A stretch of DNA of 27,501 nucleotides, from the IMG/VR virus record IMGVR_UViG_3300031867_000457, positions 1 to 27,501 of that record, one strand, 5' to 3'. This stretch comes from a virus. Under the pieces are notes generated by a model, which was given only the letters and a program-made list of their open reading frames with translations, had not been told where the DNA came from and searched no databases. The position numbers were made by a program, and so were the translations under genes. Of the stretch, positions 6,873 through 22,790 are shown in pieces; the stretch's first letter is position 1; every line of letters begins with the position of its first letter.

Positions 6873-7169
6873 TTAATTTCTCCTTTGTAAACGTTTTATT
6901 TGTTTCTCCTGTTCCTTAGCCTTTATTACCTCATAAGATACAATATAGAACAATGTAGATATATCAAATTCCATTGCTGAAGTAAAGGTTTCATTGGTTA
7001 CTTCACAGAATTTTAAAATGAATGGGATAATACCAAATCCACTGATTCCTTCACTACCTTTATCATGTTCTTCTTGGTTTCCTTCGGCAGATTCAACTTC
7101 TTTATTCTCTTGATTGAATAAGATTGGAAAATTTGAATGAATTTTTCCAATTGTCTTTTGAAAAAAAAA
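6873..7169 (-). CDS. -1 frame extension of the 7013..7630 gene (predicted frameshift fusion of about 253 aa, lambda G/GT-like)
   Basis: Hand translation: after the T9 run the -1 frame reads QKTIGKIHSNFPILFNQENKEVESAEGNQEEHDKGSEGISGFGIIPFILKFCEVTNETFTSAMEFDISTLFYIVSYEVIKAKEQEKQIKRLQRRN with no stop for 95 codons. It ends at TAA 6873-6875, one nt before the ATG (6869-6871) of the next gene. Confidence 0.55.
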   Translation of the reverse strand, partial: FFFQKTIGKIHSNFPILFNQENKEVESAEGNQEEHDKGSEGISGFGIIPFILKFCEVTNETFTSAMEFDISTLFYIVSYEVIKAKEQEKQIKRLQRRN

Positions 7170-7630
7170 GCAGTAGAATTTACAACAGGAATCGGTAACT
7201 GTTCAATGTCATTTATTACTTCAAGCATATCATAACCATCATTATATTTGTGCCCTTCAGGAATAATAAATACTGATAACATTTTAGCCATATTTCCCGA
7301 TTTGCTGTGATTGGTAAAATCTACATATTGTGCCGTTGATATGTTACCAAGCAAACTATCAATGAAATATTTCTTTCCGTTTAATTCTATCTTCTTAGGC
7401 GGTATGCCATCAGGAATAGGTTCTTTCATGAACTCTAATTTTGCAATTTCTTTCTTGAACTCACTTATAGGTAAATTTGTAACATCATTTCCTAAAATCA
7501 GTTCAGCAATAGCAATAGTTCTTTCAGTTTCATCTTCAATCTTTATCAATTCCTGTAATCTTTCAAACTGATAAAGTGTTACGTTATACCAATTATATTT
7601 CTTTATATTTTTCATAACATTTTCATTCAT
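7013..7630 (-). CDS. putative tail assembly chaperone-like protein, zero-frame product (205 aa)
   Basis: Track ORF. The ATG at 7628-7630 lies inside motif copy c1, and a second in-frame ATG sits 5 codons later (MKNIKKYN). Contains an in-frame GCU UUU UUU UUC run at 7160-7171. Chaperone call rests on the frameshift architecture, not on sequence similarity. Confidence 0.45.
   Translation of the reverse strand: MNENVMKNIKKYNWYNVTLYQFERLQELIKIEDETERTIAIAELILGNDVTNLPISEFKKEIAKLEFMKEPIPDGIPPKKIELNGKKYFIDSLLGNISTAQYVDFTNHSKSGNMAKMLSVFIIPEGHKYNDGYDMLEVINDIEQLPIPVVNSTAFFFKRQLEKFIQIFQSYSIKRIKKLNLPKETKKNMIKVVKESVDLVLSHSF
7123..7169 (-). promoter_or_regulatory. putative -1 programmed ribosomal frameshift signal
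   Basis: Plus strand has A9 at 7161-7169, which is U9 in the mRNA. In-frame heptamers are U UUU UUU (7169-7163) and U UUU UUC (7166-7160). An 8-nt spacer (aaaagaca) follows. Then comes a perfect 9-bp stem AUUGGAAAA (7151-7143) / UUUUCCAAU (7131-7123) with an 11-nt loop. Confidence 0.55.
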
Positions 7631-7661
7631 ATATTCATAAAAATAGAAAAATCAAACACTT
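7622..7661 (-). promoter_or_regulatory. copy c1 of the 40-bp bipartite motif GTGTTTGA-N16-AATATATG
   Basis: Minus strand reads AGTGTTTGA-TTTTTCTATTTTTATG-AATATATGAATGAA. It fills the 32-nt gap between the terL stop (7663) and the next gene, and the ATG of box B is that gene's annotated start. Confidence 0.5.
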
Positions 7662-7662
7662 C

Positions 7663-8898
7663 TTATCTTATTGCATAAGTGCCTTTATTTATACAATCCA
7701 ATGCAAGTAACATAGCAATAATACAGTCATCATGATAGCCATTGGCGGCATTGTATGTGCGTTTGCCATTTGCATTAGTTTTCATTTCGTACATATCCAA
7801 TTGTACCTTTAATGTTGGATTATCCAATATAGTTACCTGTTTGTTTTGCATATAAACCTGAAACTGATTTATAATTCTTTCTTTACTTTCATTGGTTGTA
7901 GTAAATTTAAGCAACATAACAGGTAAACCATTTGCCTTAATCGCTTTATCCAATAAGCCATAGAACACCGCGCCAATGCTGTTTGTTTCTACCTGCACCT
8001 TTAACGGTTTGTAACGCTTGATAAGTTCAATAATATAATCAATTGTTTGTGTTTCATCCTTATCGCTAAAATGATACAAACCTATCATTTGTCTTTCACC
8101 GTTAAAGATTGCAATGGCTGTTTCATCTTGATGGTTTCCTGTACCCCAATCAATCCCGAAGTAACAGTTACCATTGGTATTGAAGTTATTGTTTATAATA
8201 CCTGAATAATTTCCAAATACGCCACCTTCATTATCAAGAAACTCGCCTAAAAATTCTGTTTTGAATTTAGATGGCGGTATCTGTTTACGATATTCTTCTA
8301 ACTTTTCTTTGGGTAATAATGCAGAAGTGTCAAATTCACTCCAATTGTAGGATAAAATTGAATTTCCGTTTTCCAATCCCATTGTGTAGTATTTATAAAA
8401 GAATCCTGTCTTATGGTTTGGTGTGCTACATATAATTACAGGGGCTTGAGAAACATTAACCCATGCAAGAATTTCGTAAAATATGTTATCCGATATATAA
8501 GCCCCTTCATCTATACACAAAATACCTGTAACTGTGTAACCTCTTAAACCGTCACCTTGTTCAGCCGATTTAAATAATATTTCGCTGCCATTACACAACT
8601 TGATATACAACTGCAAATCATTGTGTTTGTAATATATCTTTGTAGGCTGTATAACCGTTTTACAGGCATTGAACACCTTTCTTGCTTGTTCCAATGTAGG
8701 TGAAACAAAGATTGAAGTTGTTTTTGAATTGTTTATGGCTGTTTGTAAAATGATTGATTGAAGTAAAATGGATTTTCCAACCTGCCGCTTTGATTTTATA
8801 ACATGTATATAACCGCGCCAATTCGCCTTAACATTATTTATTACCTGTGTCTGCCAAGGATAGAATTTAAGATTAGATTTTACTTTAACAACATCCAT
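7663..8898 (-). CDS. terL: terminase large subunit (411 aa)
   Basis: Walker A-like KSKRQVGKS, Walker B ILCIDEGAY, CSTP coupling-type motif, then an RNaseH-like nuclease half (GIDWGTG ... VETNS ... GYHDDCIIA). Follows a small HTH/acidic protein. Confidence 0.9.
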   Translation of the reverse strand: MDVVKVKSNLKFYPWQTQVINNVKANWRGYIHVIKSKRQVGKSILLQSIILQTAINNSKTTSIFVSPTLEQARKVFNACKTVIQPTKIYYKHNDLQLYIKLCNGSEILFKSAEQGDGLRGYTVTGILCIDEGAYISDNIFYEILAWVNVSQAPVIICSTPNHKTGFFYKYYTMGLENGNSILSYNWSEFDTSALLPKEKLEEYRKQIPPSKFKTEFLGEFLDNEGGVFGNYSGIINNNFNTNGNCYFGIDWGTGNHQDETAIAIFNGERQMIGLYHFSDKDETQTIDYIIELIKRYKPLKVQVETNSIGAVFYGLLDKAIKANGLPVMLLKFTTTNESKERIINQFQVYMQNKQVTILDNPTLKVQLDMYEMKTNANGKRTYNAANGYHDDCIIAMLLALDCINKGTYAIR

Positions 8899-9564: not shown

Positions 9565-9905
9565 TTGTCTATAAATTTAGAATAAATTGTTTGGATTATT
9601 TTTGTTATAATATCTTCTACCAATAATATAGTATTTTTAATCAAACCACTAAAAGTTGCTAATAAGCACACAACCACTATATATTTTAGAGTGAAAGCAC
9701 CTGTAAAGAACAGATAGATTAAGCCACACCACCAAATGGTACACAGACTACAATCAAATGGTTTAAGCCTATAATCACAACCTGACATCCTACCCTTGGT
9801 TAATAACCACTTTAAACTGCTTTTCAACGTATCAATTGCCCCTGATATGTCAATCACAAAAACACATATCAAAGCAATCATCAATAGGTTTATTATTGTT
9901 TCCAT
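9561..9905 (-). CDS. small polytopic membrane protein with Cys cluster (114 aa)
   Basis: Three hydrophobic segments (LLMIALICVFVIDISGAI; TIWWCGLIYLFFTGAF; IVVVCLLATFSGLI) and C-x9-C-x2-C (GCDYRLKPFDCSLC). Overlaps the 3' end of the sigma region-4-like ORF by 56 nt. Confidence 0.55.
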   Translation of the reverse strand: METIINLLMIALICVFVIDISGAIDTLKSSLKWLLTKGRMSGCDYRLKPFDCSLCTIWWCGLIYLFFTGAFTLKYIVVVCLLATFSGLIKNTILLVEDIITKIIQTIYSKFIDK

Positions 9906-10323
9906 ATTTTTCAGTATATATTTTTCTTATTTTCTTTCTTGCATTATAAACAAGCACCTTTAACGTTGCAACATTTTTAGGGGCTGTACCTTCAAATGAT
10001 TTTATACATTCGGAATAACTTTTTGAACATTCTACTGCGATTAAAAGGTTACGTTCAGCAGGGGTAATTTCATTGTTAATAATGTCCCATAACCTGATAA
10101 ATTCAACTGATTTGTTATAATCAAAATAAGCATCCATTTCAAAAACCTCATGATTATCATCCTTAAACAATCGTATTTCTTCCTTTTTATCAAGATAAAT
10201 ATTGTTCATTGTTTCAATATATTCCTGTACTTCGGCTTTAGCAACTTCATATTTTGTTTTCTTCATCGTAGGTTGCCCAAAAGATGTCATCTTTTGTTTG
10301 GAAGGTTTCGTTGTATTTTCCAT
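9850..10323 (-). CDS. sigma-70/ECF region-4-like protein (157 aa; may start at the internal Met at 10266)
   Basis: ITPAERNLLIAVECSKSYSECIKSFEGTAPKNVATLKVLVYNARKKIRKIY matches the region 4.2 pattern Lp..eR.v..l.....s..EIa..lg.s..tVk..l.rAr.kLr. No region-2-like part is present in this ORF. Confidence 0.5.
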   Translation of the reverse strand: MENTTKPSKQKMTSFGQPTMKKTKYEVAKAEVQEYIETMNNIYLDKKEEIRLFKDDNHEVFEMDAYFDYNKSVEFIRLWDIINNEITPAERNLLIAVECSKSYSECIKSFEGTAPKNVATLKVLVYNARKKIRKIYTEKYGNNNKPIDDCFDMCFCD

Positions 10324-10636
10324 ATTTTTTATAGATTTTACTTGTTTTACTAATCAATTGTTGGTGAATTATACCTGTAACATATCCACTAATTGCAAAT
10401 CTTCCTTGAGAATATAATTCATTCCATCTTTTCTGAGGAACTTCACAAATCATAAGGTATATTTCCTGAATCTTATCCTGTACTTCCTCATTTTCCATTG
10501 TTTTCTTAAGTAAATAGGTAGTGTACCATTCTACAATGTGAATATCATAAATCCATTGTATAATATCATCCTTCTTATCTGATTTAAGCGGTAAGTCAGC
10601 AGAAAGAACCTTAAATTCATAGTAGTTATTTTTCAT
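10247..10636 (-). CDS. sigma-70/ECF region-2-like protein (129 aa)
   Basis: EEVQDKIQEIYLMICE ... FAISGYVTGIIHQQLISKTSKIYKKY resembles region 2.2-2.4 (aeDlvQe.fl.l ... f..WL..Ia.N..id..Rk..r). The ORF stops before any region-4-like part and overlaps the next ORF by 77 nt in a different frame. Confidence 0.4.
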   Translation of the reverse strand: MKNNYYEFKVLSADLPLKSDKKDDIIQWIYDIHIVEWYTTYLLKKTMENEEVQDKIQEIYLMICEVPQKRWNELYSQGRFAISGYVTGIIHQQLISKTSKIYKKYGKYNETFQTKDDIFWATYDEENKI

Positions 10637-10767
10637 ATTCCTAATATTTTTTTATAAATTTCACTTCTATCATCTGTTACTTTATAAAGGTTGTATTTAG
10701 CACCATCTGCTGTTAGTTTAGCAATATTGGCTGTAATAGTATCTCTTAATTGCTTATCCCTAACCAT
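10633..10767 (-). CDS. small hypothetical protein (44 aa)
   Basis: Not in track. ATG at 10765-10767: MVRDKQLRDTITANIAKLTADGAKYNLYKVTDDRSEIYKKILGI. Its TGA overlaps the next gene's ATG as ATGA, suggesting translational coupling. Confidence 0.3.
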   Translation of the reverse strand: MVRDKQLRDTITANIAKLTADGAKYNLYKVTDDRSEIYKKILGI

Positions 10768-10840
10768 CTTTGTAATAGCTTTAGCCCATCCTTTGCTTCC
10801 CTTTTGATTGTTTACTAATATGCAATTTTCTTCATATATT

Positions 10841-11694: not shown

Positions 11695-13218
11695 TTAATT
11701 ATTGTTAAGGTTATCATTTTTATTATTATGGTAATTTTTCTTTGCTTGTTGAACCTGATACATCGTACAGCCTAAAACCTTCATGTTTTTCCTAATGGAT
11801 AGTTCAGGATTGTAACCTTCTATGATTGTTTTCTTTGTACGTGTTTTTGGTTTTTCAGGCGTTATATTATTTTCCTTGCAGAATTGGTATAAACGACTTA
11901 TTGATACTGTATAACCTGCATTCTGCATCGTAAGTTGGTTTTCTTTGATTGTAAGAGTAGAATCAAACATACACCCTATAGTTTCATTCGTGATTTCCTT
12001 TCTTGCTGCGGCTACGGCTTGATGCTTATCTTCTACTGTCGGATTGATGATAAAGTTTGGTTTTTTATCTGATACCATTGATTTGATTTCCTCTTCGCTT
12101 GTAAGGAATGCAGCCTTTACTTTTGCCTTTAAGACTTCTACCGTTAAAACTTCATCCATATTATCAAAGTGTTTGTATCTGTCTATGTAAAGGTTGTAAA
12201 GCAGTTCATCAGGTGTTGTATCATCCTTCATCAATCTTCTAATAGATGCACGAATGTATAATTTCTTTCTTCTTTGATTACCGTCTTCTACCTTATTTGC
12301 TATGTAGAAGAGTTGATAATAATCTTCGGTAGTTGTTATATAATATTTATCCCCAAAATCTACAGCAGTTTTTGTAAAGTATCTTAATCCTTTAGCGTGC
12401 CATTTCCTAACTACAAACTCATACGGTAAACTTTCCATATCAGTAACCAATTCCTCTGTAAACGCTATTTTATTCGTTTTAACAGGTTTCTCTTCTATAA
12501 CCTGATATTCCTCTTCTACATCAGGTATAATTGGTTCTACGTGAAAATCATCCTTACTGTAGATGATGTGTGAATTATAAGTATCATCCGAATTGCTACC
12601 GTTCATATACTGACTAAATGAACATCCACACATATCTTGCATTTCTTCTTTAGTATCGGCTACTATTGAATCATATAAGGCAAAGGTTGTTTCTCTAAAC
12701 TCATCAACCGATAATACGCTGTCAAATACATAGACTAATCTGAATCTTCTGCTTATAACACCGTTCTTATCTTTTCTGTCGCTGTAAGAGTAATAAGCGC
12801 ATGTAGGTTTATTTGATAAGCAAGAAATGTAATCTGTAATAGATTGGTAGTGTGTGTAATCAACATCTACAAAGATTGTCTGACTACCTGCGAAAAACTC
12901 ATCCGATTTAAAGTTTAATTTGAAATAGCCTTTATTTAAACCCCTTCTGTAGATTGGATAGGTTTTAGTCCACCTACCACCTGTTCTAATCCAATATTGT
13001 TTTTCTGTGTCAAAGTGGAATAAGTTGCAGAATGAATAACCGTTAATAGCATATTCAAGAAATTCATCTACTGTTACCGTTTCTTCTTTAAACGCCATCT
13101 TCGGATGTCCTATTTCTTTAGCCGTTATAGAAGATAAACACATTTTAGCAGTTTCTTTGTTATCGTAACCTTCCCTACTAATAGAAGTTCTAAATGTAAA
13201 TTCTAAATCCTGTTTCAT
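11695..13218 (-). CDS. putative replication initiation / primase-polymerase-like protein (507 aa from ATG)
   Basis: The track start at 13227 is TTG; the first ATG is at 13216-13218 (MKQDLEF) with TTTG-N6 upstream. TIFVDVDY (hhhDxD) followed by RFRLVYVF is reminiscent of AEP/VirE_N-type primase cores. C-terminal third is basic and HTH-like. Confidence 0.35.
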   Translation of the reverse strand: MKQDLEFTFRTSISREGYDNKETAKMCLSSITAKEIGHPKMAFKEETVTVDEFLEYAINGYSFCNLFHFDTEKQYWIRTGGRWTKTYPIYRRGLNKGYFKLNFKSDEFFAGSQTIFVDVDYTHYQSITDYISCLSNKPTCAYYSYSDRKDKNGVISRRFRLVYVFDSVLSVDEFRETTFALYDSIVADTKEEMQDMCGCSFSQYMNGSNSDDTYNSHIIYSKDDFHVEPIIPDVEEEYQVIEEKPVKTNKIAFTEELVTDMESLPYEFVVRKWHAKGLRYFTKTAVDFGDKYYITTTEDYYQLFYIANKVEDGNQRRKKLYIRASIRRLMKDDTTPDELLYNLYIDRYKHFDNMDEVLTVEVLKAKVKAAFLTSEEEIKSMVSDKKPNFIINPTVEDKHQAVAAARKEITNETIGCMFDSTLTIKENQLTMQNAGYTVSISRLYQFCKENNITPEKPKTRTKKTIIEGYNPELSIRKNMKVLGCTMYQVQQAKKNYHNNKNDNLNNN

Positions 13219-13239
13219 AGTTTGCAAATGATTTTAAGA

Positions 13240-13389
13240 TTAAATTATTACGTCTGTGGCATCATGTGTAGTTACCACGAACTCTATTTCTCCATTCTTG
13301 ACAGCCTTATTAAATGCTGCATGCCCCATTGCTTTCTTCGCCTGCTGTCTATCGGGGTATGTCTGTTTAGTAATTTTGTTTTGTATCAT
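13240..13389 (-). CDS. small early-region protein (49 aa)
   Basis: Not in track. MIQNKITKQTYPDRQQAKKAMGHAAFNKAVKNGEIEFVVTTHDATDVII. The ATG is preceded by TTTGACAACT (TTTG-N6-ATG). Confidence 0.35.
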   Translation of the reverse strand: MIQNKITKQTYPDRQQAKKAMGHAAFNKAVKNGEIEFVVTTHDATDVII

Positions 13390-13408
13390 AGTTGTCAAAA
13401 TTTAAATC

Positions 13409-13546
13409 TTATCCGAAAAATATGTAATCGTATAATCCTTTATCATGCGTGTACATATCATATAAGTCTGTATCAGTCATATTGGTTATTACTTTATAAC
13501 CTGTCTTTGTCACCGACTGATAGGTGATAGTTTTGATGTTTCCCAT
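13409..13546 (-). CDS. small early-region protein (45 aa)
   Basis: Not in track. MGNIKTITYQSVTKTGYKVITNMTDTDLYDMYTHDKGLYDYIFFG. The ATG is preceded by CATTTGCAAACT (TTTG-N6-ATG). Confidence 0.35.
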   Translation of the reverse strand: MGNIKTITYQSVTKTGYKVITNMTDTDLYDMYTHDKGLYDYIFFG

Positions 13547-13865
13547 AGTTTGCAAATGTTTCCTTTCTTTTTATATTTATCTAAAAATTTTTTGTGATTT
13601 TTTGCATTTTTGTAAAACATTGTAAATCAATGGGAAGTGGTTATCTTTGATTTTCTTCTAATTAAATATAATTTAGGTATCAGGAAAGTCAATAGATATT
13701 TTATCCTTTTCTATATATAAATACTTTTTAACTTTCAAAAAGTGATAGAAAAAGTGATTTTTTTTTAATTTTTTTTCTGATATACAAAGGTATCAGGAAA
13801 ACGGCATATAAAAAAGTTCTACACCATTTTCCTGAAATAATAGAATAAGCCTGATGTGATTCTTC

Positions 13866-14378: not shown

Positions 14379-14418
14379 TACATACATATATTCATAGAAG
14401 AAGAATTTTCAAACACTT
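14379..14418 (-). promoter_or_regulatory. copy c2 of the 40-bp bipartite motif
   Basis: Minus strand reads AAGTGTTTGA-AAATTCTTCTTCTATG-AATATATGTATGTA. No ORF follows directly. 37/40 identical to the reverse complement of c5. Confidence 0.5.
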
Positions 14419-14515
14419 CTTTAAATCAACCCTAACCCTGCCATAATAACCATCAATCCAAACATGAATCCAAATACTACTACACCTATCACAATAGATA
14501 CCTTAAATAGATACT

Positions 14516-14671
14516 TTAACATAGCCCTAAATCCTTTCTTACTTTAGCCATAGTTTGATGATAAGTCTGAAATAAATCCAAATCAAACCCCCACCTAATC
14601 TGTGTTGCTTCAAAATACTCTGTAGGATTCATTTTTAGATAATTCTTTCCCCATAATCTAAAACTTTTCAT
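14516..14671 (-). CDS. hypothetical small protein (51 aa from ATG; the track ORF uses an upstream TTG at 14740)
   Basis: MKSFRLWGKNYLKMNPTEYFEATQIRWGFDLDLFQTYHQTMAKVRKDLGLC. ACTATG context at 14669-14671. No family recognised and coding status uncertain. Confidence 0.25.
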   Translation of the reverse strand: MKSFRLWGKNYLKMNPTEYFEATQIRWGFDLDLFQTYHQTMAKVRKDLGLC

Positions 14672-14788
14672 AGTAGTAAGACGGTTAACCACCCACCGAA
14701 AGGTTTTAAGTTTAGCAATAAAATCCCGATAAAGAAGCAAACCATCCTTCTTTATTCTTTCACCTATAAGAATTATGTTGATGAAAAT

Positions 14789-14824
14789 GGGAAAAAAGTG
14801 GGGGAAAATAGGGGGTTTTGGGGG
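14789..14824 (+). repeat. G-tract cluster G3-N8-G5-N6-G5-N4-G5 (potential G-quadruplex on plus strand, C-tracts on minus strand)
   Basis: GGGaaaaaagtGGGGGaaaataGGGGGttttGGGGG. Further GGG runs at 14841-14843 and 14854-14856. Conspicuous in a very AT-rich non-coding stretch. Confidence 0.6.
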
Positions 14825-14974
14825 TAAAATGGCTGTTCAAGGGTAGTTTTGAAGGGAAATGAGTAAATTTGGTTGTAAAGTTGGTAATTAGGTTGTAGAA
14901 TTGGTATTAGGTTATTATAGGTATTATCTCTATATTTCTTTCTATTCTCTCTTATATTATTATTCAAGTAATTC

Positions 14975-15017
14975 TACATACATATATTATTAGAAAAATA
15001 AAATTATTCAAACACCT
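14975..15017 (-). promoter_or_regulatory. copy c3 of the bipartite motif (19-nt spacer variant)
   Basis: Minus strand reads AGGTGTTTGA-ATAATTTTATTTTTCTAAT-AATATATGTATGTA. Its sense direction points into the C-rich, non-coding-looking stretch 14773-14967. Confidence 0.45.
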
Positions 15018-15100: not shown

Positions 15101-15352
15101 ATGAAAACAATTCAACTTTATTTCAATAATGATTCTACTGTATCTGTAAAAGAATGCCTTAGATTATCAAGATATGACATGATAACAGTAGCAGAAGAAA
15201 CAGGTGAACATTACTACATTGAAGGTAATAATGAAGGATTCCAAAAAGGTTATTCATTTGGGGTTATTTATACGCTGTTCTTTATGCTTGTAGGATGGTT
15301 TGGTATCAGGATATTAGACAGGCTGAGAAACCCCAAGCAAATGAATGATTAA
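15101..15352 (+). CDS. small C-terminally anchored membrane protein (83 aa); the only plus-strand gene
   Basis: Track ORF with ATG start. Hydrophobic helix VIYTLFFMLVGWFGIRIL near the C-terminus. Followed by a hairpin plus T-run. Confidence 0.55.
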   Translation: MKTIQLYFNNDSTVSVKECLRLSRYDMITVAEETGEHYYIEGNNEGFQKGYSFGVIYTLFFMLVGWFGIRILDRLRNPKQMND

Positions 15353-15375: not shown

Positions 15376-15401
15376 GGATTAGGTGTTAAGCCTAATCTTT
15401 T
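15376..15401 (+). terminator. rho-independent-type terminator of the 83-aa gene (A-tract upstream, so potentially bidirectional)
   Basis: aaaaaGGATTAGG-tgttaag-CCTAATCTttt: a 7-bp stem plus one G-U pair, a 7-nt loop and a T4 tail. An outer TAAGTGC/GCACTTA pairing (15350-15356 / 15403-15409) encloses it. Confidence 0.55.
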
Positions 15402-15425
15402 GGCACTTATCCACAAAAAGCCCCC
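15390..15425. repeat. left terminal inverted repeat of the IS
   Basis: gcctaatcttttggcacttatccacaaaaagccccc aligns with the reverse complement of 16737-16772, ggctaaacttttggcagttaaccatgaaaacacccc. 28/36 identical, core CTTTTGGCA.TTA.CCA. The outer limit is uncertain by about 12 nt. Confidence 0.6.
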
Positions 15426-15469
15426 TGCACACTACCAACGATAATGTGCACTATAGTTCATAAAGGGGC
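15415..15469 (-). terminator. terminator of the transposase gene
   Basis: Minus strand reads GCCCC-tttatgaactatag-TGCACA-ttatcgttggtag-TGTGCA-g-GGGGC-TTTTT. That is nested 5-bp GC and 6-bp stems followed by T5. Confidence 0.5.
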
Positions 15470-15485
15470 GACTGTCAATTAGCCC

Positions 15486-16598
15486 TTATTCAAAATCTGA
15501 TAATGTGTAAACTTTCCCTTTGTTTCTTATTTCGGATAAACCAAATATTTCCATTCCCTTCTTTAAGGCTTCCATGTGTGCCTTTTCTTTGGCTTGTTTT
15601 TCTTGCAGTTTCTTCTTGCTTATAAACATTGCCTGAAAGTTATAGTTCCTGATGTCGTTATAGGTGTAATGTATGCCTATAGAGTTACTGATTATTTGGT
15701 TAAACTTATCTTCTGTTGATAGGCTTTTTGTGTTGAATCTAAAAGCATATTCATTAAGATATAACTGATGATATTTGCAATGGGTTATCTTACCGTTAAA
15801 TCCACGCTTAAACCAACTAAACCTGTTTTCTATTGCATTACTTGTTAACCCTTCCTTTGTTCGGTATTGGTTGTTGTGGTGATTATTGGTATATAATTTA
15901 CTGCCTGTAGCCTGTTCCCAATCTATGTATAAAGCACTTTCATCAGATACAACAGAACTACCTTTCTTTGCGTGTTTTTTGTATAGTGTTCTGATATATT
16001 CTTTCTTAATCGGATTGGGTGTAGCATACAATACAACCTTATCCCCATTAGTCATGCCAAATACAGGCTGTTTAAGGGCTTTATTTAAGGCAAATATATT
16101 TTCCTTCGTATATTTATAATCATCTTGTTTAATGAAATGATTTTTACGTAATAAATCCAATTTGCGGCTATAATGGAAGTTAGACAAACAACCACCAACA
16201 TACATTTCATCTTGGGCTATAATACCTTCCAAAATAACCTTATCCTGTGGCATGGCAAACCGTAACTTAGTCATTAACAGCCATGCAGATTTTTGGTTAA
16301 TGCCAAGTTTTTTTGACATTACTACAGAAGATATAAAGTTATCTACACTCATTTCATAGATTGCCTGCATCCAAACCGATACAGGTAACTTAGAACCGTG
16401 CATTAAGGTGTTTGTTTTGTCTGTGAAACGCCTTTTGCAACTATTACACTTGTACCTGTAACCGTCATATTCTGCAATGTGAAGGCTACCACAATAAGGG
16501 CAAACAACAATACCATAACCCCACCTTACACGATGGAAAATTACCTCTGCATTCCTGATAACTTTTGCCGTTGATAATGTGTGTTTTTTCGCTGTCAT
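15486..16598 (-). CDS. IS1595-family (ISXO2-like) DDE transposase, 370 aa from the first ATG
   Basis: N-terminal zinc ribbon CPYCGS...YKCNSCKRRF, then an HTH. Catalytic signatures are AQDEMYVGG, VVSDESALY, SNAIENRFSWFKR and YLNEYAFRFN. The track start at 16625 is TTG and lies inside the -7 box; the ATG at 16596-16598 (MTAKKH) is the likely start. Confidence 0.9.
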   Translation of the reverse strand: MTAKKHTLSTAKVIRNAEVIFHRVRWGYGIVVCPYCGSLHIAEYDGYRYKCNSCKRRFTDKTNTLMHGSKLPVSVWMQAIYEMSVDNFISSVVMSKKLGINQKSAWLLMTKLRFAMPQDKVILEGIIAQDEMYVGGCLSNFHYSRKLDLLRKNHFIKQDDYKYTKENIFALNKALKQPVFGMTNGDKVVLYATPNPIKKEYIRTLYKKHAKKGSSVVSDESALYIDWEQATGSKLYTNNHHNNQYRTKEGLTSNAIENRFSWFKRGFNGKITHCKYHQLYLNEYAFRFNTKSLSTEDKFNQIISNSIGIHYTYNDIRNYNFQAMFISKKKLQEKQAKEKAHMEALKKGMEIFGLSEIRNKGKVYTLSDFE

Positions 16599-16622
16599 AA
16601 TGTCAATTTCTAAAAAACAATG

Positions 16623-16654
16623 CAAAGGTACAGAAAATAAATCATTTATCCAAA
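16623..16654 (-). promoter_or_regulatory. canonical Bacteroidota sigma-A-type promoter of the transposase
   Basis: Minus strand reads TTTG (16654-16651), 20 nt, then TACCTTTG (16630-16623) followed by CA. An exact match to TTTG-N19-21-TAnnTTTG. Confidence 0.7.
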
Positions 16655-16736
16655 TATTTCATCCCTAAAATTCGGTATTTCGTCACATTTTTTATCCCTA
16701 TTTTATGGGATTAAATTGCTGATAATCATTGTATTT

Positions 16737-16772
16737 GGGGTGTTTTCATGGTTAACTGCCAAAAGTTTAGCC
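16737..16772. repeat. right terminal inverted repeat of the IS
   Basis: See the left repeat. The plus strand reads ggggtgttttcatggttaactgccaaaagtttagcc. Confidence 0.6.
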
Positions 16773-17051: not shown

Positions 17052-17091
17052 AGGTGTTTGAAATTTCTTCTTTTATGAATATATGTATGTA
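17052..17091 (+). promoter_or_regulatory. copy c5 of the bipartite motif, the only copy in plus orientation
   Basis: Plus strand reads AGGTGTTTGA-AATTTCTTCTTTTATG-AATATATGTATGTA. Its sense direction runs antisense into the 89-aa gene. Confidence 0.5.
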
Positions 17092-17955: not shown

Positions 17956-17987
17956 CAAAGTTACTAAATTATTTTCATATATCCAAA
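17956..17987 (-). promoter_or_regulatory. canonical Bacteroidota-type promoter upstream of the 183-aa gene
   Basis: Minus strand reads TTTG (17987-17984), 20 nt, then TAACTTTG (17963-17956) followed by CA. The ATG is 25 nt downstream. Confidence 0.65.
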
Positions 17988-17989
17988 TC

Positions 17990-18418
17990 TTATCTGATAT
18001 TTATGTATATTTTTTCTCCATTATCCCATGCTGTTTTAATTACACTCATCAATTTTTTCATTGATTTCTTACTATTTATAACCTTACCTTTTACTTTGTT
18101 TTCTCCTACCAATATACAGCCTTTTGTATCTTCTTTATTGTTACCTGCGTGGATTCTAATATCTTTGAACATTGGTACATCTAATAATTCAGGTAATATC
18201 TTTTTGAAGTGTGGGGAATAACTTAATATTACCTCATATCTTCCTTCAGGTATGGCTGTTTCTCCATATATCTTATCTTCAATTGTATCTAATGTTCTTA
18301 CCTTATCTTCTAAAGTATCACATAGATATTCACCATTTATATATAGGTTTCCAATGGTATAATCTTCTTTCTTATATAATCTATCTATTCTTATATCCAT
18401 ATATCCATTTACATACAT
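17990..18418 (-). CDS. candidate endolysin / cell-wall enzyme with His...Gly-Cys motif (142 aa)
   Basis: IRIHAGNNKEDTKGCILVGENK resembles the H-x(n)-G-C signature of YkuD-type L,D-peptidoglycan enzymes. It is the last gene of a holin-like / spanin-like / this-gene cluster. The ATG lies inside motif c4, with an alternative Met 6 codons later (MDIRIDR). Confidence 0.35.
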   Translation of the reverse strand: MYVNGYMDIRIDRLYKKEDYTIGNLYINGEYLCDTLEDKVRTLDTIEDKIYGETAIPEGRYEVILSYSPHFKKILPELLDVPMFKDIRIHAGNNKEDTKGCILVGENKVKGKVINSKKSMKKLMSVIKTAWDNGEKIYINIR

Positions 18419-18449
18419 ATATTCACAGAAAAAGAAAAATCAAACACCT
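18410..18449 (-). promoter_or_regulatory. copy c4 of the bipartite motif
   Basis: Minus strand reads AGGTGTTTGA-TTTTTCTTTTTCTGTG-AATATATGTATGTA. Box A overlaps the last codons and stop of the upstream gene (..G V stop = GGTGTTTGA). Box B contains the start codon of the downstream gene. Confidence 0.5.
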
Positions 18450-18874
18450 AACTTCCATTTAATAAGTTTGATTAGTCCGATTATTATTAGTATTGTTAGA
18501 ATGCCTGCTACATAACAAACAACATACCATTTTATACTTGGTTCTGTTTGTTTTGTTTCATCGGTTTGTTCTGTTTTATTTTCCTCTATTTCTGCCTTAT
18601 TATCTGTTTTTTCCTCTGTTACAACCTTATCATTGTTTACTTCCTTTATATCAATTTTCTTCTTTATCGGGTATTCATTTCTTATTGTGTCATAAATGGT
18701 TTCATATTCGTATATTGTGATATATTTGGTAGTGTTTTTATTGGTTGTTTCGGTTTTATCTGTTTTAGTTTCTGATTCTGTTATTTTCTCTGCTTCCTTT
18801 TCTATTTTGATATGTTGCTGTGTTTTACATGCAGGGAATAATAACAGGACTAATATTAACATCCATTTTTTCAT
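18440..18874 (-). CDS. lipoprotein with C-terminal TM anchor, u-spanin-like architecture (144 aa)
   Basis: Signal peptide plus Cys (MKKWMLILVLLLFPAC), an E/K/T-rich middle, and a C-terminal TM WYVVCYVAGILTILIIIGLIKLI. This is the same topology as unimolecular spanins such as T1 gp11. Confidence 0.4.
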   Translation of the reverse strand: MKKWMLILVLLLFPACKTQQHIKIEKEAEKITESETKTDKTETTNKNTTKYITIYEYETIYDTIRNEYPIKKKIDIKEVNNDKVVTEEKTDNKAEIEENKTEQTDETKQTEPSIKWYVVCYVAGILTILIIIGLIKLIKWKLGV

Positions 18875-19232: not shown

Positions 19233-22200
19233 TTAGAACAACGCCCCTATATCAACACCTACTGCATCAGCAATTTTTTTCAATATATCTTGCAATGTCA
19301 TAATATCAGGATTATCATACTTAGTTTCAGTTCCGTTATAATAACCCAAACCATATACATAGATGTCGCCATTTTGCATTATTTCAAAGGCATTCTTTCT
19401 TTCACCATCTTCACCAATACCTACTGAAACAACAGTATTGCCTTCGTGATGTACTTCCGAAACATCTACTGAGTGTGAAACATTATATCTACCTTGTGCG
19501 TGTTCGTTTATATTATTGGTTTCAGTTGCAAAACCTTCGGCGTGTGAATGTGTTGCACTTGCTTGAGTTATAGTTAAACACCCTTCTGCGTGTGAATAAG
19601 CACCTTCAGCAGAACATCCATCACCATTAGTTATAGAACCACAACCAGAATCATATCCATAACCAAGTGCAGAAATTGTATTGTTAGTGATGTCGATATT
19701 GTCGCCTGTTCCAAGTGCATCTTGTTTTCCTCTAATAGTTTCCTGCAAAGTCTGCAAACCACTTGGTGCACCTGTTTCACCTTTAATATGTACTCCATCA
19801 TAGTTACCAATACCAATCAAATAAACTTGTCCTGATTGCATTACTTCAACAGCGTTCTTTCTTGCATCATCAGCCGTACCGATACCTATAGAATGAACTG
19901 TATTACCCAAATTACCGTCGAAACTATCGGTTATGTAGTGCGAAACATTATAAGAACCTTGTGCGTGTTCAGCATTACACAATGTTTTGGTAAATCTACC
20001 TTCGGCGTGTGAGTTAAGTCCATTAGTGATTGTTTCACTTCCTTCAGCGTGAGATTGGTTACCATTTGCGATTGTTCTACTACCTTCAACGTGTGTGTTA
20101 TTACCATTTGCGATTGTGCTACCACCTTCCGCGTGAGAATTAGTACCTTTTGCAAACGTTAATTTGCCTTCTGAGTGAGAGTTAACACCATAAGCAATAG
20201 TGGCATTACCTTCAGCGTGTGCATAATCACCTGCATCTGTTTTACTATCAGCAGTTTTTGGATTAGTTGTTTCAGAAGCGTAATTACCACCTGTTTCTGA
20301 ACCATCACCCTCGGCGTGTGACGCATATCCATTAGCAACTGCTTGTCGTCCTTCTGTATGCGAATTTGTACCCTTTGCTTCTGTACTACCACCTTCAGCG
20401 TGTGAATTTATACCATCTGCTTTTGTACCACTACCTTCTGCGTGTGCACGTGCGCCCGATGCGACTGAATTTATACCTTCAGCGTGTGAACAATTTCCTT
20501 TTGCAAATGTTTGTTGTCCCTCTGAATGTGATGCAATACCATAAGCAATTGTAGCACTACCTTCTGCGTGTGAATAGTCACCCGTTGTTGTTGTTCTGCT
20601 ATTAGGTGTTTTAGGATTGGTTGTATTACTTGAATAATTACCACCTGTTTCGCAAGTGTCACCCTCAGCGTGTGAAGCATATCCATTTACTGTTGTATTT
20701 TTACCTTCAGCGTGTCCATTAGCACCAGCTGCTGCTACAGTTGTTACACCACCCTCTGCGTGAGAATGTGCACCAATTGCACGAGTACCATTACCTTCTG
20801 TATGTGAATAATTACCTTTAGCAAAAGTTGTTTTACCTTCTGAATGTGCAGCAACACCATACGCAATGGTAGCATTACCTTCAGCGTGTGCATACGCACC
20901 TGCATCTGTACTACCACCTGCTGTTTTGGGGTTAGATAATACAGAACCATAATTACCACCTGTTTCTGTATTATAGCCTTCAGTGTGTGATGCATATGCT
21001 GTACTATTTGCTTTAGTTGAACGTCCTTCTGCGTGGGAAACATTTCCACTTGCTGTTGATTCTGCACCCTCAACGTGGGATGCAATTCCTTCTGCATTTG
21101 TGTTACTACCTTCTGCGTGTGAGTTATTACCACTTGCAATTGTTGATAATCCTTCAGAGTGGGCAGTTGAACCTTGTGCTGTTGTACCATTACCTTCTGC
21201 GTGTGAAGCCCGTCCTGTAGCACTAGTATTAATACCTTCAGCGTGCGCCATAATACCTGTAGCAGTTGATTTATAACGAATAGTACCGTTTTCATCAATA
21301 TCCCTATCACCTTCAGCAAAAGCACCGTTTGATGTATTATATCTATAACCAATTGCCTTTATAGCATTGTTGGTAATGTCTATGTTATCACCTGCAGAAT
21401 AAGTTGTATCATTTGCAGATATAGTAGTACCATTGATTGTGATGTTATTACCTGCTGTAAGTGTGGCTTGTTTACCACCCAATAATGTATCAACTTCTGT
21501 TTTGTTGTAATAGTTTGACAAATCAACCTCAGTAGAACCAATCTTTTCCCAAGCATTGTTGATGTACATATATTCGTCATAAACATCAGGATTTGCACCA
21601 CCTGCTTTAGGAACGAAATATATAGTATTCACTTCACCTGTTGCAGGAAGTGTTTGAACAACTTCTACACTAAATCCTGCATCAATCACAGCGGATATAG
21701 TATTGTTTGTGATAACTATATTTTGTCCTGCTGTCAACACATCTTGTTTACCACTGATAACCTGTTGAAGTGTTTTTACAGTTTCATATCCTTGTTCAGA
21801 TTTGATATGCACACCATCATAATTACCAACACCTTTGATATAAACATCTGCGTTCTGCATTACCTCAACAGCATTGGATTGTGTATCTGTGTATCGTCCA
21901 TTACCGATAGAATGAAGTGTGTGATTACCGTCACCTTGCCAAGTAGTTGCAGCATTAGATGCTGTTTTGTGTGATATGTTTGCAGCACCTTGTGCGTGTT
22001 CTGCGTAGTTTTGTGTTTGAGTGAACAAACCTTCTGTATGTGAGTCATCACCAACAGCACATAAATCATCAGCAGAAGCACCTTCGCCCTCAGCGTGTGC
22101 CCTTAAACCTCTTGCTTTTGTATATCCGCCTTCAGAGTGTGATTGTCTTCCAATTGCTTTAGTTTGGTAGCCTTCTGCGTGTGAATAGTTTGCTTTTGCT

Positions 22201-22790
22201 TCTGTTTCACCACCCTCGGCGTGTGATGCTGTTTCAGATGCTTTTGTCAAGTTGCCTTCAGCGTGTGTAACAAATCCCGAAGCCTGTGTTAAGTTGCCTT
22301 CAGCGTGGCAACCATAATCACCGCTTGCTGTTGTGCTATATCCTTCTGCGTGAGAACCTAATCCTGTAGCAGTATTTTCAACAACCTGTCCACCATCAGC
22401 AGCATCTTGTTTGTATTTCTCAGCAAAACCGCCATTTGTATCACCGTTGAACTTGTAACCTTTAGCAGAAATAGTATCGTTAGCAATATCGATGTTTTCG
22501 CCTGCTGTCAACGCGCCTTGTTTGTTTGATAGTTCGGAGTTTATTTTGTTTGAACTCCAAGTTTTATCGGTTCTTACAGAAGTATCATCTATAATGTGTC
22601 CTAATTCCTCAGCCAACGGTAATATTTCTAAAAGAATAGAATAAACATCATCAAAATCTTCCTCACTACCACCAAGTTCCCTGTATATATTCATTGAAAG
22701 CGAATAAATACTTTCAAAAGGTATAGGTTCTGTACCTAACCTTGCACTAATTTCCTGTGCTATTTCGTAATTTGAATTAAAATCTGCCAT
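19233..22790 (-). CDS. tail fibre / host-adhesion protein built from 14-residue H-x-E-G repeats (1185 aa)
   Basis: About 35-40 copies of (S/A)H(A/S/T)EG spaced 14 residues apart, for example SHAEGGETEAKANY-SHAEGYQTKAIGRQ-SHSEGGYTKARGLR-AHAEG. Three modules each end in EHAQG..N.SH...HSIG.G...NA.E.MQ.G..Y..G.G.Y.G. GKQ..LTAG.NI.I.N.TISA linkers join them. A fibre-collar motif is present: LPATGEVNTIYFVP...YDEYMYINNAWEKIGS. Confidence 0.75.
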   Translation of the reverse strand: MADFNSNYEIAQEISARLGTEPIPFESIYSLSMNIYRELGGSEEDFDDVYSILLEILPLAEELGHIIDDTSVRTDKTWSSNKINSELSNKQGALTAGENIDIANDTISAKGYKFNGDTNGGFAEKYKQDAADGGQVVENTATGLGSHAEGYSTTASGDYGCHAEGNLTQASGFVTHAEGNLTKASETASHAEGGETEAKANYSHAEGYQTKAIGRQSHSEGGYTKARGLRAHAEGEGASADDLCAVGDDSHTEGLFTQTQNYAEHAQGAANISHKTASNAATTWQGDGNHTLHSIGNGRYTDTQSNAVEVMQNADVYIKGVGNYDGVHIKSEQGYETVKTLQQVISGKQDVLTAGQNIVITNNTISAVIDAGFSVEVVQTLPATGEVNTIYFVPKAGGANPDVYDEYMYINNAWEKIGSTEVDLSNYYNKTEVDTLLGGKQATLTAGNNITINGTTISANDTTYSAGDNIDITNNAIKAIGYRYNTSNGAFAEGDRDIDENGTIRYKSTATGIMAHAEGINTSATGRASHAEGNGTTAQGSTAHSEGLSTIASGNNSHAEGSNTNAEGIASHVEGAESTASGNVSHAEGRSTKANSTAYASHTEGYNTETGGNYGSVLSNPKTAGGSTDAGAYAHAEGNATIAYGVAAHSEGKTTFAKGNYSHTEGNGTRAIGAHSHAEGGVTTVAAAGANGHAEGKNTTVNGYASHAEGDTCETGGNYSSNTTNPKTPNSRTTTTGDYSHAEGSATIAYGIASHSEGQQTFAKGNCSHAEGINSVASGARAHAEGSGTKADGINSHAEGGSTEAKGTNSHTEGRQAVANGYASHAEGDGSETGGNYASETTNPKTADSKTDAGDYAHAEGNATIAYGVNSHSEGKLTFAKGTNSHAEGGSTIANGNNTHVEGSRTIANGNQSHAEGSETITNGLNSHAEGRFTKTLCNAEHAQGSYNVSHYITDSFDGNLGNTVHSIGIGTADDARKNAVEVMQSGQVYLIGIGNYDGVHIKGETGAPSGLQTLQETIRGKQDALGTGDNIDITNNTISALGYGYDSGCGSITNGDGCSAEGAYSHAEGCLTITQASATHSHAEGFATETNNINEHAQGRYNVSHSVDVSEVHHEGNTVVSVGIGEDGERKNAFEIMQNGDIYVYGLGYYNGTETKYDNPDIMTLQDILKKIADAVGVDIGALF
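19971..20999 (-). repeat. tandem triplication (about 315-360 nt units) inside the fibre gene
   Basis: Three units (about aa 598-702, 703-820, 821-940) each read YASH.EG....ETGGNY.S...NPKT.......G.Y.HAEG.ATIAYG...HSEG..TFAKG..SH.EG. At DNA level they share near-identical blocks such as ccacctgtttc...caccctc.gcgtgtga.gcatatccatt. Confidence 0.7.

Follow-up and report, generated by a model that had tools for sequence, protein, structure and literature searches.

A conserved element of about 45 bp recurs at gene junctions of the viral DNA IMGVR_UViG_3300031867_000457 (27,501 nucleotides, positions 1 to 27,501 of that record, hereafter the window) and of related uncultured gut phages, with one of its copies lying at 18410–18449. 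We tentatively read it as a clade-specific, portable linker repeat that serves as a point of exchange for gene cassettes and whose copies evolve in concert, an interpretation to which we assign close to, yet somewhat less than, an even chance of being correct. The case for recombination draws on how precisely the joints are placed and on the existence of hybrid copies, and not on counts of breakpoints.

Read in its own orientation, each copy carries stop codons (TAA or TAG, followed by the TGA of a first conserved box, box A) and, after an unstructured spacer rich in T, a start region of the form GAATAT-ATG-(A/T)AT-G...; the four to five near-identical copies placed between genes or cassettes would supply 40–45 bp of homology. 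Phage or host recombination at these copies could then swap, insert or delete the flanking gene blocks, while gene conversion would homogenise the copies within a genome. Transcriptional activity, if any, would be secondary, the element resembling the promoter-early stem-loop (PeSL) cassettes of other phages while carrying a non-canonical putative promoter. That the element itself is the recombination substrate, and does not just lie near the joints, is something we infer, as are the machinery involved and any promoter or protein-binding function. If the reading is correct, a 45-bp sequence carrying both stop and start signals would allow unrelated gene blocks to be plugged into fixed sockets, and as an exchange substrate the element would make a compact, tractable example of the way small Bacteroidota-type gut phages remain mosaic. 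The PeSL idea would also reach beyond large T4-type coliphages, to an uncultured group of very different phages.

Copies of the element in the window and in related phages

The pattern GTGTTTGA-N(14-22)-AATATATG, that is box A, a spacer and box B, has five exact matches in the window and none in 100 dinucleotide-preserving shuffles of it. The five-copy motif with invariant boxes proposed in the initial annotation is real, non-random and biologically meaningful. On the minus strand, the exact matches of copies c1 (7628–7659, within the element at 7622–7661), c2 (14385–14416; element 14379–14418) and c4 (18416–18447; element 18410–18449) have a spacer of 16 nt (N16), while that of c3 (14981–15015; element 14975–15017) has one of 19 nt (N19). 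The fifth copy, c5 (17054–17085; element 17052–17091), is again of the N16 form and lies on the plus strand, antisense to genes. Addition of the extension AATATATGWATGWA with up to three mismatches allowed revealed no extra copies in the window.

Alignment of the copies showed that conservation spans the whole ~45 bp, with the consensus (T)A(A/G)(A/G)GTGTTTGA(A/T), a T-rich spacer including a conserved TTTCT, and AATATATG(T/A)ATG(T/A)A. As the spacer is itself about 75% conserved, a description as two boxes with a free spacer understates the conservation. Across an alignment of 24 copies from seven genomes, GTGTTTGA is invariant and AATATATG-ATG-A near-invariant, although the TerL DNA of these phages is only ~72–92% identical. 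Neither RNA nor DNA structure was detected, as the element shows no dyad symmetry and its folding is no more stable than that of shuffled sequence (minimum free energy −1 to −6 kcal/mol, z-scores −0.4 to +1.3); searches of Rfam and for tRNAs returned no match, and the behaviour expected of a terminator or structured RNA was not seen. Explanations of the motif as a tRNA, an Rfam family or a hairpin were dropped accordingly.

Logan and ENA assemblies yielded 828 relatives of the large terminase of the window (TerL; 7663–8898, minus strand), through which phages related to the window were reached. Contigs of these phages were fetched and element copies called with an nhmmer profile of the known copies, which gave about 20 further copies, most of them N19, in related uncultured gut phages (TerL 83–100% identical). 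Five were found in contig L058 (TerL 86% identical to that of the window), four in L062 (84%), three plus a decayed one in L059 (83%), two degenerate ones in L060 (80%), and one each in L071 (84%) and L072 (82%), the latter at the contig end. The near-identical strain L074 holds four copies and the near-identical strains L076–79 two to three each. No copy was detected in L063 (85%; 12.5 kb covered), L073 (81%), L061 (80%) or L036/L037 (68%), and a search of the element-free L063 for an alternative repeat found none. The more distant genomes have a 19-nt spacer (18 nt in one copy), and the N16 form corresponds to a 3-bp deletion adjoining box A. The earlier view of a fixed N16 spacer with c3 as the variant thus describes four of the five window copies correctly, but N19 is the common or ancestral form.

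Outside this group of phages, exact-pattern scans of IMG/VR (with N16, then N16–20) matched only unrelated coding sequences, 185,579 genomes of bacteria and archaea contained 0 matches, and a scan of the JGI metagenomes gave 20 matches that all belong to one unrelated repeat with the spacer CCACTGTGCACGTTATA and a (TGTA)n tail. A blastn search with 61 nt against GenBank phages returned only weak, AT-rich partial matches to Lak megaphages at chance level. With no genuine match in any of these collections, the 40-mer is not simply the end of a known mobile element, an outcome that would have spoken against the annotated motif. The JGI repeat, of the form ...CAGATTCAAGCCTT-GTGTTTGACCACTGTGCACGTTATAAATATATGTATGTA-(TGTA)n and present on contigs L038–L057 (Ga0209782, Ga0209366, Ga0209737 and JGI20166J26741), is a coincidental match; it is dispersed, has a GC content of ~40% and is probably eukaryotic, from a host genome.

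Every copy is intergenic, with about 13 of some 21 copies in sense and about 8 (38%) antisense to genes. Whichever way a copy points, the gene on its 5' side ends with a stop codon that the element either overlaps or follows at a distance of 0–17 nt, and a TAA or TAG stands ahead of box A also at copies without such a gene. Copy c1 begins 3 nt past the TerL stop, c2 lies 6 nt past the stop of a 33-aa open reading frame (ORF), and c5 lies 17 nt past the stop of an 89-aa gene, with its box A 5 nt before a minus-strand 27-aa ORF; the counterpart of c5 in L058 is an antisense copy at 1251–1301. At c4, the box-A TGA ends the 144-aa gene (ORF 18440–18874), as had been annotated. An ORF check also agreed with the annotation that the longest ORFs at c1 (7013–7630) and c4 (17990–18418) begin with the ATG of box B, each with a second in-frame Met five to six codons later. 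Alignment of homologues places the conserved starts at these second Mets, namely at ATG 7615 for the 200-aa gene downstream of c1 (13 nt past box B; MKNIKKYNWY in the window vs MLNVKELNWY in a relative) and at ATG 18400 for the DUF5675 protein gene (MDIRIDRLYKKEDYTIG vs MEIEVIRIFKGEDYTIG). This rules out the box-B ATG as the ancestral start, and the two start-codon calls are corrected to 7615 and 18400. Around the latter, positions 18393–18413 of the minus strand hold a tandem 8-mer duplication that includes the DUF5675 start codon (AAATGGATAT-ATGGATAT-AAG), and the corresponding duplication in L074 covaries with the second codon (ATGAAT...), which suggests that this TATG-rich low-complexity stretch underwent slippage or conversion.

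The presence of the element differs among close relatives at the same junction. As expected of a motif found at equivalent positions in related phages, it lies directly after TerL in the window, L058, L059, L062, L071, L074 and L076–79, whereas in L060, L061, L063, L072, L073 and L036/L037 this junction is without it and the next gene follows within 2–24 nt. The junction ahead of the DUF5675 gene carries the element in the window, L074 and L076, while the corresponding genes of L063 overlap by 10 nt instead.

Cassette exchange at element copies

Comparison of the window with L074 revealed 94.7% identity over the transposase region through the last base of c3, followed by ~550 bp of unrelated sequence, with homology returning 2 nt before c2. 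L059 is matched at 93% identity by the body of c3, which has the N19 spacer, and by the 500 bp that follow, while the upstream flank of c3 matches L074; at c2, the right-hand limit of the exchanged stretch, homology to both L074 and L076 begins at box A. The stretch between the two copies (14419–14974, minus strand), comprising a C-rich non-coding tract and ORFs of 51 and 33 aa, is thus ~93% alike to L059 and replaced relative to L074. These alignments show that the c3–c2 cassette was exchanged, each joint falling within or at an element copy, and that c3 is a hybrid copy brought into this genome by recombination, which explains why c3 alone in the window has an N19 spacer.

In the strains L076–79, only one copy stands at the position that c3, a cassette and c2 occupy in the window and L074; its left spacer is like that of c3 and its right end like that of c2, as is expected of the product of recombination between c3 and c2. 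Other boundaries were likewise found at element edges, at 1296 and 2898 in the comparison of L058 with L063, and in L071 a 730-bp gene insertion begins exactly in box B. In addition, the window carries a specific insert of 1.1 kb relative to L074 and L076 (16818–17953, minus strand), which contains a canonical promoter, genes of 183 and 89 aa, c5 and the 27-aa ORF.

The 3-bp deletion is common to all resident copies of the window subclade (c1, c2, c4 and c5 of the window, L074 and L076–79), while the orthologous TerL-junction copies in L058, L059, L062 and L071 are N19. Because the subclade shares this deletion and the orthologous copies of other lineages lack it, the pattern indicates concerted evolution of the copies within a genome. 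Copy c1 nevertheless keeps its ortholog-specific right end, ATGAATGAAAAT.

Several observations weigh against the element as the site of exchange. Breakpoints fall within 12 nt of an element edge significantly often when compared with a whole-region null (P 0.03 and 0.007), but not when compared with an intergenic-only null (P about 0.3); they are concentrated in hypervariable intergenic DNA, which is also where the elements are found. Five of six boundaries are on the box-A side, so the cassettes could simply carry their own 5' signal. No recombinase or single-strand annealing protein gene was identified in the genome, and antisense copies are only loosely explained. Furthermore, the conservation of two boxes across diverged genomes suggests protein recognition, although gene conversion could mimic such a pattern.

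As the closest documented analogue we consider the PeSLs, mobile regulatory cassettes of T4-type phages (PMC2839356, PMC4122927), which are repeated in intergenic positions of plastic regions, with the stop of one gene before them and the start of the next after them, and through which modules are shuffled and deleted (PMC2839356). The element is likewise repeated, conserved and intergenic between stop and start, it is concentrated in a plastic small-ORF region, and indels or replacements among the relatives end at the motifs. Recombination between neighbouring PeSL copies deletes the intervening ORF, and the hybrid copy of L076 fits such an event. PeSLs, however, match the sigma-70 consensus perfectly and are strong promoters present at ~50 per 170 kb (PMC2839356), whereas the element has no stem-loop, its boxes are off the host housekeeping promoter consensus, it occurs at 3–5 copies per 27-kb genome, and more than a third of its copies are reversed. 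Its predicted host, moreover, is a member of the Bacteroidota. Given these differences in structure, promoter, copy number, orientation and host, the likeness is best regarded as an analogy and the element not as a member of the PeSL family. A similar comparison can be made with lambdoid phages, in which linker or boundary sequences separate modules (modular theory of Susskind and Botstein; HK620 and other lambdoid genomes). Both are short, conserved and located at junctions where mosaic joints fall, but the lambdoid sequences are usually pairwise homologies at particular junctions, while the element forms a dispersed family in two orientations with defined boxes.

Positions 14790–14900 of the minus strand, downstream of c3, form the C-rich tract of the c3–c2 cassette (…CCCTTCAAAACTACCC…ACCCCCAAAACCCCC…TTCCCCCAC…), 93% conserved with L059. 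Akin CCCCT-rich repeats occur in the distant relative L037 (509–717), and the tract could be an origin or a long leader.

Promoter reading and the sigma-like proteins

A genuine promoter as the primary function is a serious alternative, though we consider it unlikely, at perhaps one chance in a few. It would be recognised by the host RNA polymerase (RNAP) with an alternative or modified sigma factor, or by a split phage sigma factor of the extracytoplasmic function (ECF) type, formed by a 129-aa sigma2-like and a 146-aa sigma4-like protein. The genes that follow sense copies would be transcribed from them, and transcription from antisense copies would yield oop-like antisense RNAs directed at the 3' ends of the genes for replication, the transposase and the lysis cassette. 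The architecture is compatible with this reading, as two conserved blocks lie ~2.5 helical turns apart around an AT-rich unstructured spacer. Box A contains TTTG, and a −7-like octamer follows 20–21 nt downstream in both spacer forms, even if it is a different octamer in each (TTTG-N20-AATATATG in N19, TTTG-N21-TATGTATG in N16). Copies of the c3 type are located past the terminator hairpin of the transposase and divergent from the only plus-strand gene (83 aa, 15101–15352; absent in L076–79), exactly where a promoter would be needed, and no TAnnTTTG box occurs between 15015 and 14299. A hairpin also stands immediately upstream of box A in four of the ~21 copies, at 2888(−) and 6272(−) in L058, 2303(+) in L059 and 6316(−) in L062, and the PeSLs as functional analogues are themselves promoters.

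The sequence of box B, in contrast, fits neither promoter class that the initial annotation had considered. Promoters of the Bacteroidota sigma-ABfr consist of a −33 TTTG and a −7 TAnnTTTG (PMC6847099), and in the −7 element TAHHTTTG the bases T-12, A-11, T-8, T-7, T-6 and G-5 are nearly invariant, while G is virtually absent at −10 and −9 (PMC6847099). The element shares the TTTG, the AT-rich spacer and the intergenic position, with a −7-like octamer at 20–21 nt that differs between the two spacer forms, but AATATATG misses T-12 and T-7, TATGTATG has a G at −9 and an A at −7, and degenerate copies (AATATAAGTAGTAG) are still further away. A degenerate −33/−7 promoter is hence not supported in either register. 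Perfect canonical promoters exist elsewhere in the same genomes and differ from the element, which often points against genes; in the window, the two annotated TTTG-N20-TAnnTTTG sites at 16623–16654 and 17956–17987 were confirmed and are the only perfect ones on the coding strand. Read as a sigma-70 promoter, TTGA(A/T)T-N16-TA(A/T)AT(T/G) agrees with TTGACA-N16-18-TATAAT at 8 of 12 positions, and a consensus scan placed no element copy among the best 60 of 72 sites, with the total number of sites not above that of shuffles. The sigma-70-like reading is not supported either. Bacteroidota RNAP does not use the TTGACA/TATAAT consensus (PMC6847099).

Arrangement and distribution also argue against a promoter. 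The distance from box A to the remainder of the element differs by 3 bp between lineages, and the antisense copies (8 of 21) face gene 3' ends with no ORF downstream. Close relatives do without the copies at the TerL and DUF5675 junctions, and since genes of these relatives overlap or lie 2–24 nt apart without the element, no promoter is required at those junctions. In L071, a PAPS-reductase-like gene follows right after the element and has its only in-frame ATG within box B, which places the element inside the mRNA and the start of the transcript upstream of box B. PAPS-reductase-like genes with an SCSFGKDS motif stand directly after TerL in L071 (8194–8976) and, without the element, in L061 (6781–7428).

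The sigma-like pair itself comprises two adjacent, overlapping minus-strand genes just upstream of the packaging genes, encoding the 129-aa (10247–10636) and 146-aa (9850–10290) proteins. Late activators of siphophages, of the RinA or ArpU type, usually sit just upstream of packaging genes. For the 129-aa protein, an AlphaFold2 (AF2) model with a mean confidence (pLDDT) of 85 and a Foldseek search predict a fold like sigma region 2. Its best BFVD matches include phage proteins named as sigma-70 region 2 or RpoE-like (probability ~1, TM 0.5–0.6, E 0.05–0.3), and its structural matches in the PDB all have E>1, 7 of 17 being sigma chains. The C-terminus of the 146-aa protein resembles sigma region 4 by eye only (ERNLL...KNVATLKVLVYNARKKIRKIY), and its AF2 model (pLDDT 49) is unreliable and too poor for a structure search. 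Pfam and sequence-profile searches against the PDB found nothing for either protein, which leaves both without sequence support as sigma factors. The two proteins may represent the halves of a split ECF-like sigma factor.

A link between this pair and the element was not borne out by their distribution. L063 has both sigma-like genes without an element in its 12.5 kb, L060, L061, L072 and L073 are without a copy at the TerL junction, c2 and c3 sit in the early, small-ORF region, and box A does not vary even though identity among the sigma4-like proteins is only 36–51%. Of the proposal that the element is the target of the phage sigma-like proteins, the resemblance of the 129-aa protein to sigma region 2 is retained, while the case of L063 speaks against the element as its target. 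Similarly, the annotated phage-specific promoter or initiation element is real in that it recurs in relatives, but the off-consensus box B, the antisense copies, the variable spacing and the dispensability do not agree with the function assigned to it. We therefore advise that the repeat not be annotated as a promoter without transcript data.

A second motif, (A)ATCATTTGCAAACTATG, occurs on the minus strand at 13211–13228, 13382–13399, 13539–13556 and ~11530, where it runs into start codons. It precedes small early genes and the 227-aa gene and is also found in L058, L059 and L062. Its TTTG lies only 6–7 nt ahead of the ATG, and if it were a −7 element, it would imply leaderless or near-leaderless mRNAs.

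Other readings and genomic setting

Two further readings appear improbable to us, and to the same degree. According to the first, the element would be bound by a phage protein, as an operator, a roadblock similar to the stoperators of mycobacteriophages or an architectural double-stranded DNA site, which after the stop codons would control read-through between cassettes. Stoperators of mycobacteriophage cluster A are asymmetric repressor sites near stop codons, 13–14 bp long, present at 20–35 per genome in a fixed orientation to transcription and served by a known repressor. The element resembles these and the start-associated sequences in being asymmetric, multi-copy, clade-specific and positioned at gene boundaries by stop or start codons. 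Its independence of orientation, strictly intergenic and stop-proximal placement, two strongly conserved boxes with a semi-conserved spacer and concerted spacing change within one lineage are all compatible with a binding site. However, none of the size, copy number (dozens per genome), single orientation and known repressor of stoperators holds for the element. At 45 bp it is long for one operator, its boxes form neither direct nor inverted repeats, and no repressor or helix-turn-helix regulator was identified in the genome. L063, moreover, is without such sites although the compared regions are colinear apart from exchanged cassettes. According to the second reading, the element would be the recognition site of a dedicated phage system, either a split-sigma promoter with co-evolved N16/N19 spacing or a crossover site for the IS1595-type transposase, the latter of which, if true, would represent an integron-like exchange of gene cassettes in a 27-kb virus.

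A miniature selfish mobile element, inserting at gene ends and mobilised in trans by the IS1595-type transposase or a homing nuclease, is still less probable in our view. It would account for presence or absence at precise junctions, in both orientations and at no fewer than nine distinct loci (at least 9), and the transposase is conserved in every well-covered relative. Transposases of the IS1595 family produce 8-bp target duplications, and 8-nt direct repeats flank c4 (TAAATGGA) and the L058 copy at 2888 (GTAGATGT), with a third tandem 8-mer at c4 that looks like an excision footprint. Yet such repeats flank only 2 of 16 copies, the boundaries they imply disagree, and the repeat at c4 is absent in L074. 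The element has no terminal inverted repeats (TIRs), its ends are unrelated to the TIRs of the insertion sequence (IS; GGCTAAACTTTTGGCA...), no copies were found outside the phage clade in the collections scanned, and L063 has the transposase without the element. Filled and empty TerL junctions, furthermore, differ by replacement and not by a clean insertion with duplication.

The resident IS1595-type unit (15390–16772, minus strand) has its TIRs at 15390–15425 and 16737–16772, a DDE transposase gene at 15486–16598 and its own canonical promoter at 16623–16654. As it occupies the same position, with inverted repeats of 34–43 nt, in L058, L059, L060, L062, L063, L074 and L076–78, and thus in every well-covered relative, it is a long-term resident and perhaps domesticated. 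A search of 185,579 bacterial genomes for the transposase confirmed no close homologue. Two derivations of the element from this unit were rejected. Copies c3 and c5 are not the inverted ends of the transposase IS, whose real TIRs lie elsewhere and which is fixed while element positions vary, and a similarity between the spacer and the transposase promoter in the window was not seen in relatives. The transposase-distal repeat carries a perfect DnaA-box-like sequence, TGTGGATAA, followed by a hairpin (15377–15397) whose stem covaries between genomes.

Least likely of all is a cassette acting on the RNA level, in which a stop, a U-rich unstructured leader for Bacteroidota ribosomes that work without Shine-Dalgarno sequences, and an AUG would serve translation re-initiation: the element does open with stops and close with an ATG, is less structured than shuffled sequence, has a box-B ATG that shares the reading frame of the gene after it in c1, c4, L062 and L071 (in the last as the sole in-frame ATG), and GAATATATGAA is also a natural start context after the 227-aa gene, but the antisense copies (38%) cannot function in this way, so that only sense copies fit, c2, c3, c5 and most copies of the relatives precede only ORFs of 3–8 codons, the conserved starts are the second Mets, and the box-B ATG of c4 is out of frame in L074.

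With regard to the genome as a whole, the source contig, from a k=141 assembly, measures 27,640 bp, corresponding to 27,501 + 139 bp, and the gene order runs across the window ends; the window is therefore almost certainly one complete circular phage genome of 27.5 kb. All genes but the 83-aa one are on the minus strand. Besides TerL and the transposase, the recognisable genes include those for the DUF5675 protein (17990–18400, minus strand), an S78 prohead protease and a tape-measure-like protein. Neither the window DNA (megablast, 14 kb) nor TerL (tblastn) had a match among GenBank phages, which places the window in an uncultured clade. A Bacteroidota-type host is suggested by the two perfect TTTG-N20-TAnnTTTG sites together with similar promoters that precede the transposase gene in each relative.

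Two regions of this genome stand out in composition or content. Between the 227-aa gene and the sigma2-like gene, a variable cassette slot at 10633–10840, which is without a copy of the 45-bp element, holds a 44-aa remnant in the window, a 393-aa gene in L074 and an EcoRI-like methylase (PF13651) in L076–79. The 1185-aa gene at 19233–22790 is clearly richer in GC (0.39–0.43) than the genome (~0.31) and matches phrog_25468 at nine internal places; its product is probably a tail fibre or receptor-binding protein, rich in repeats and acquired horizontally.

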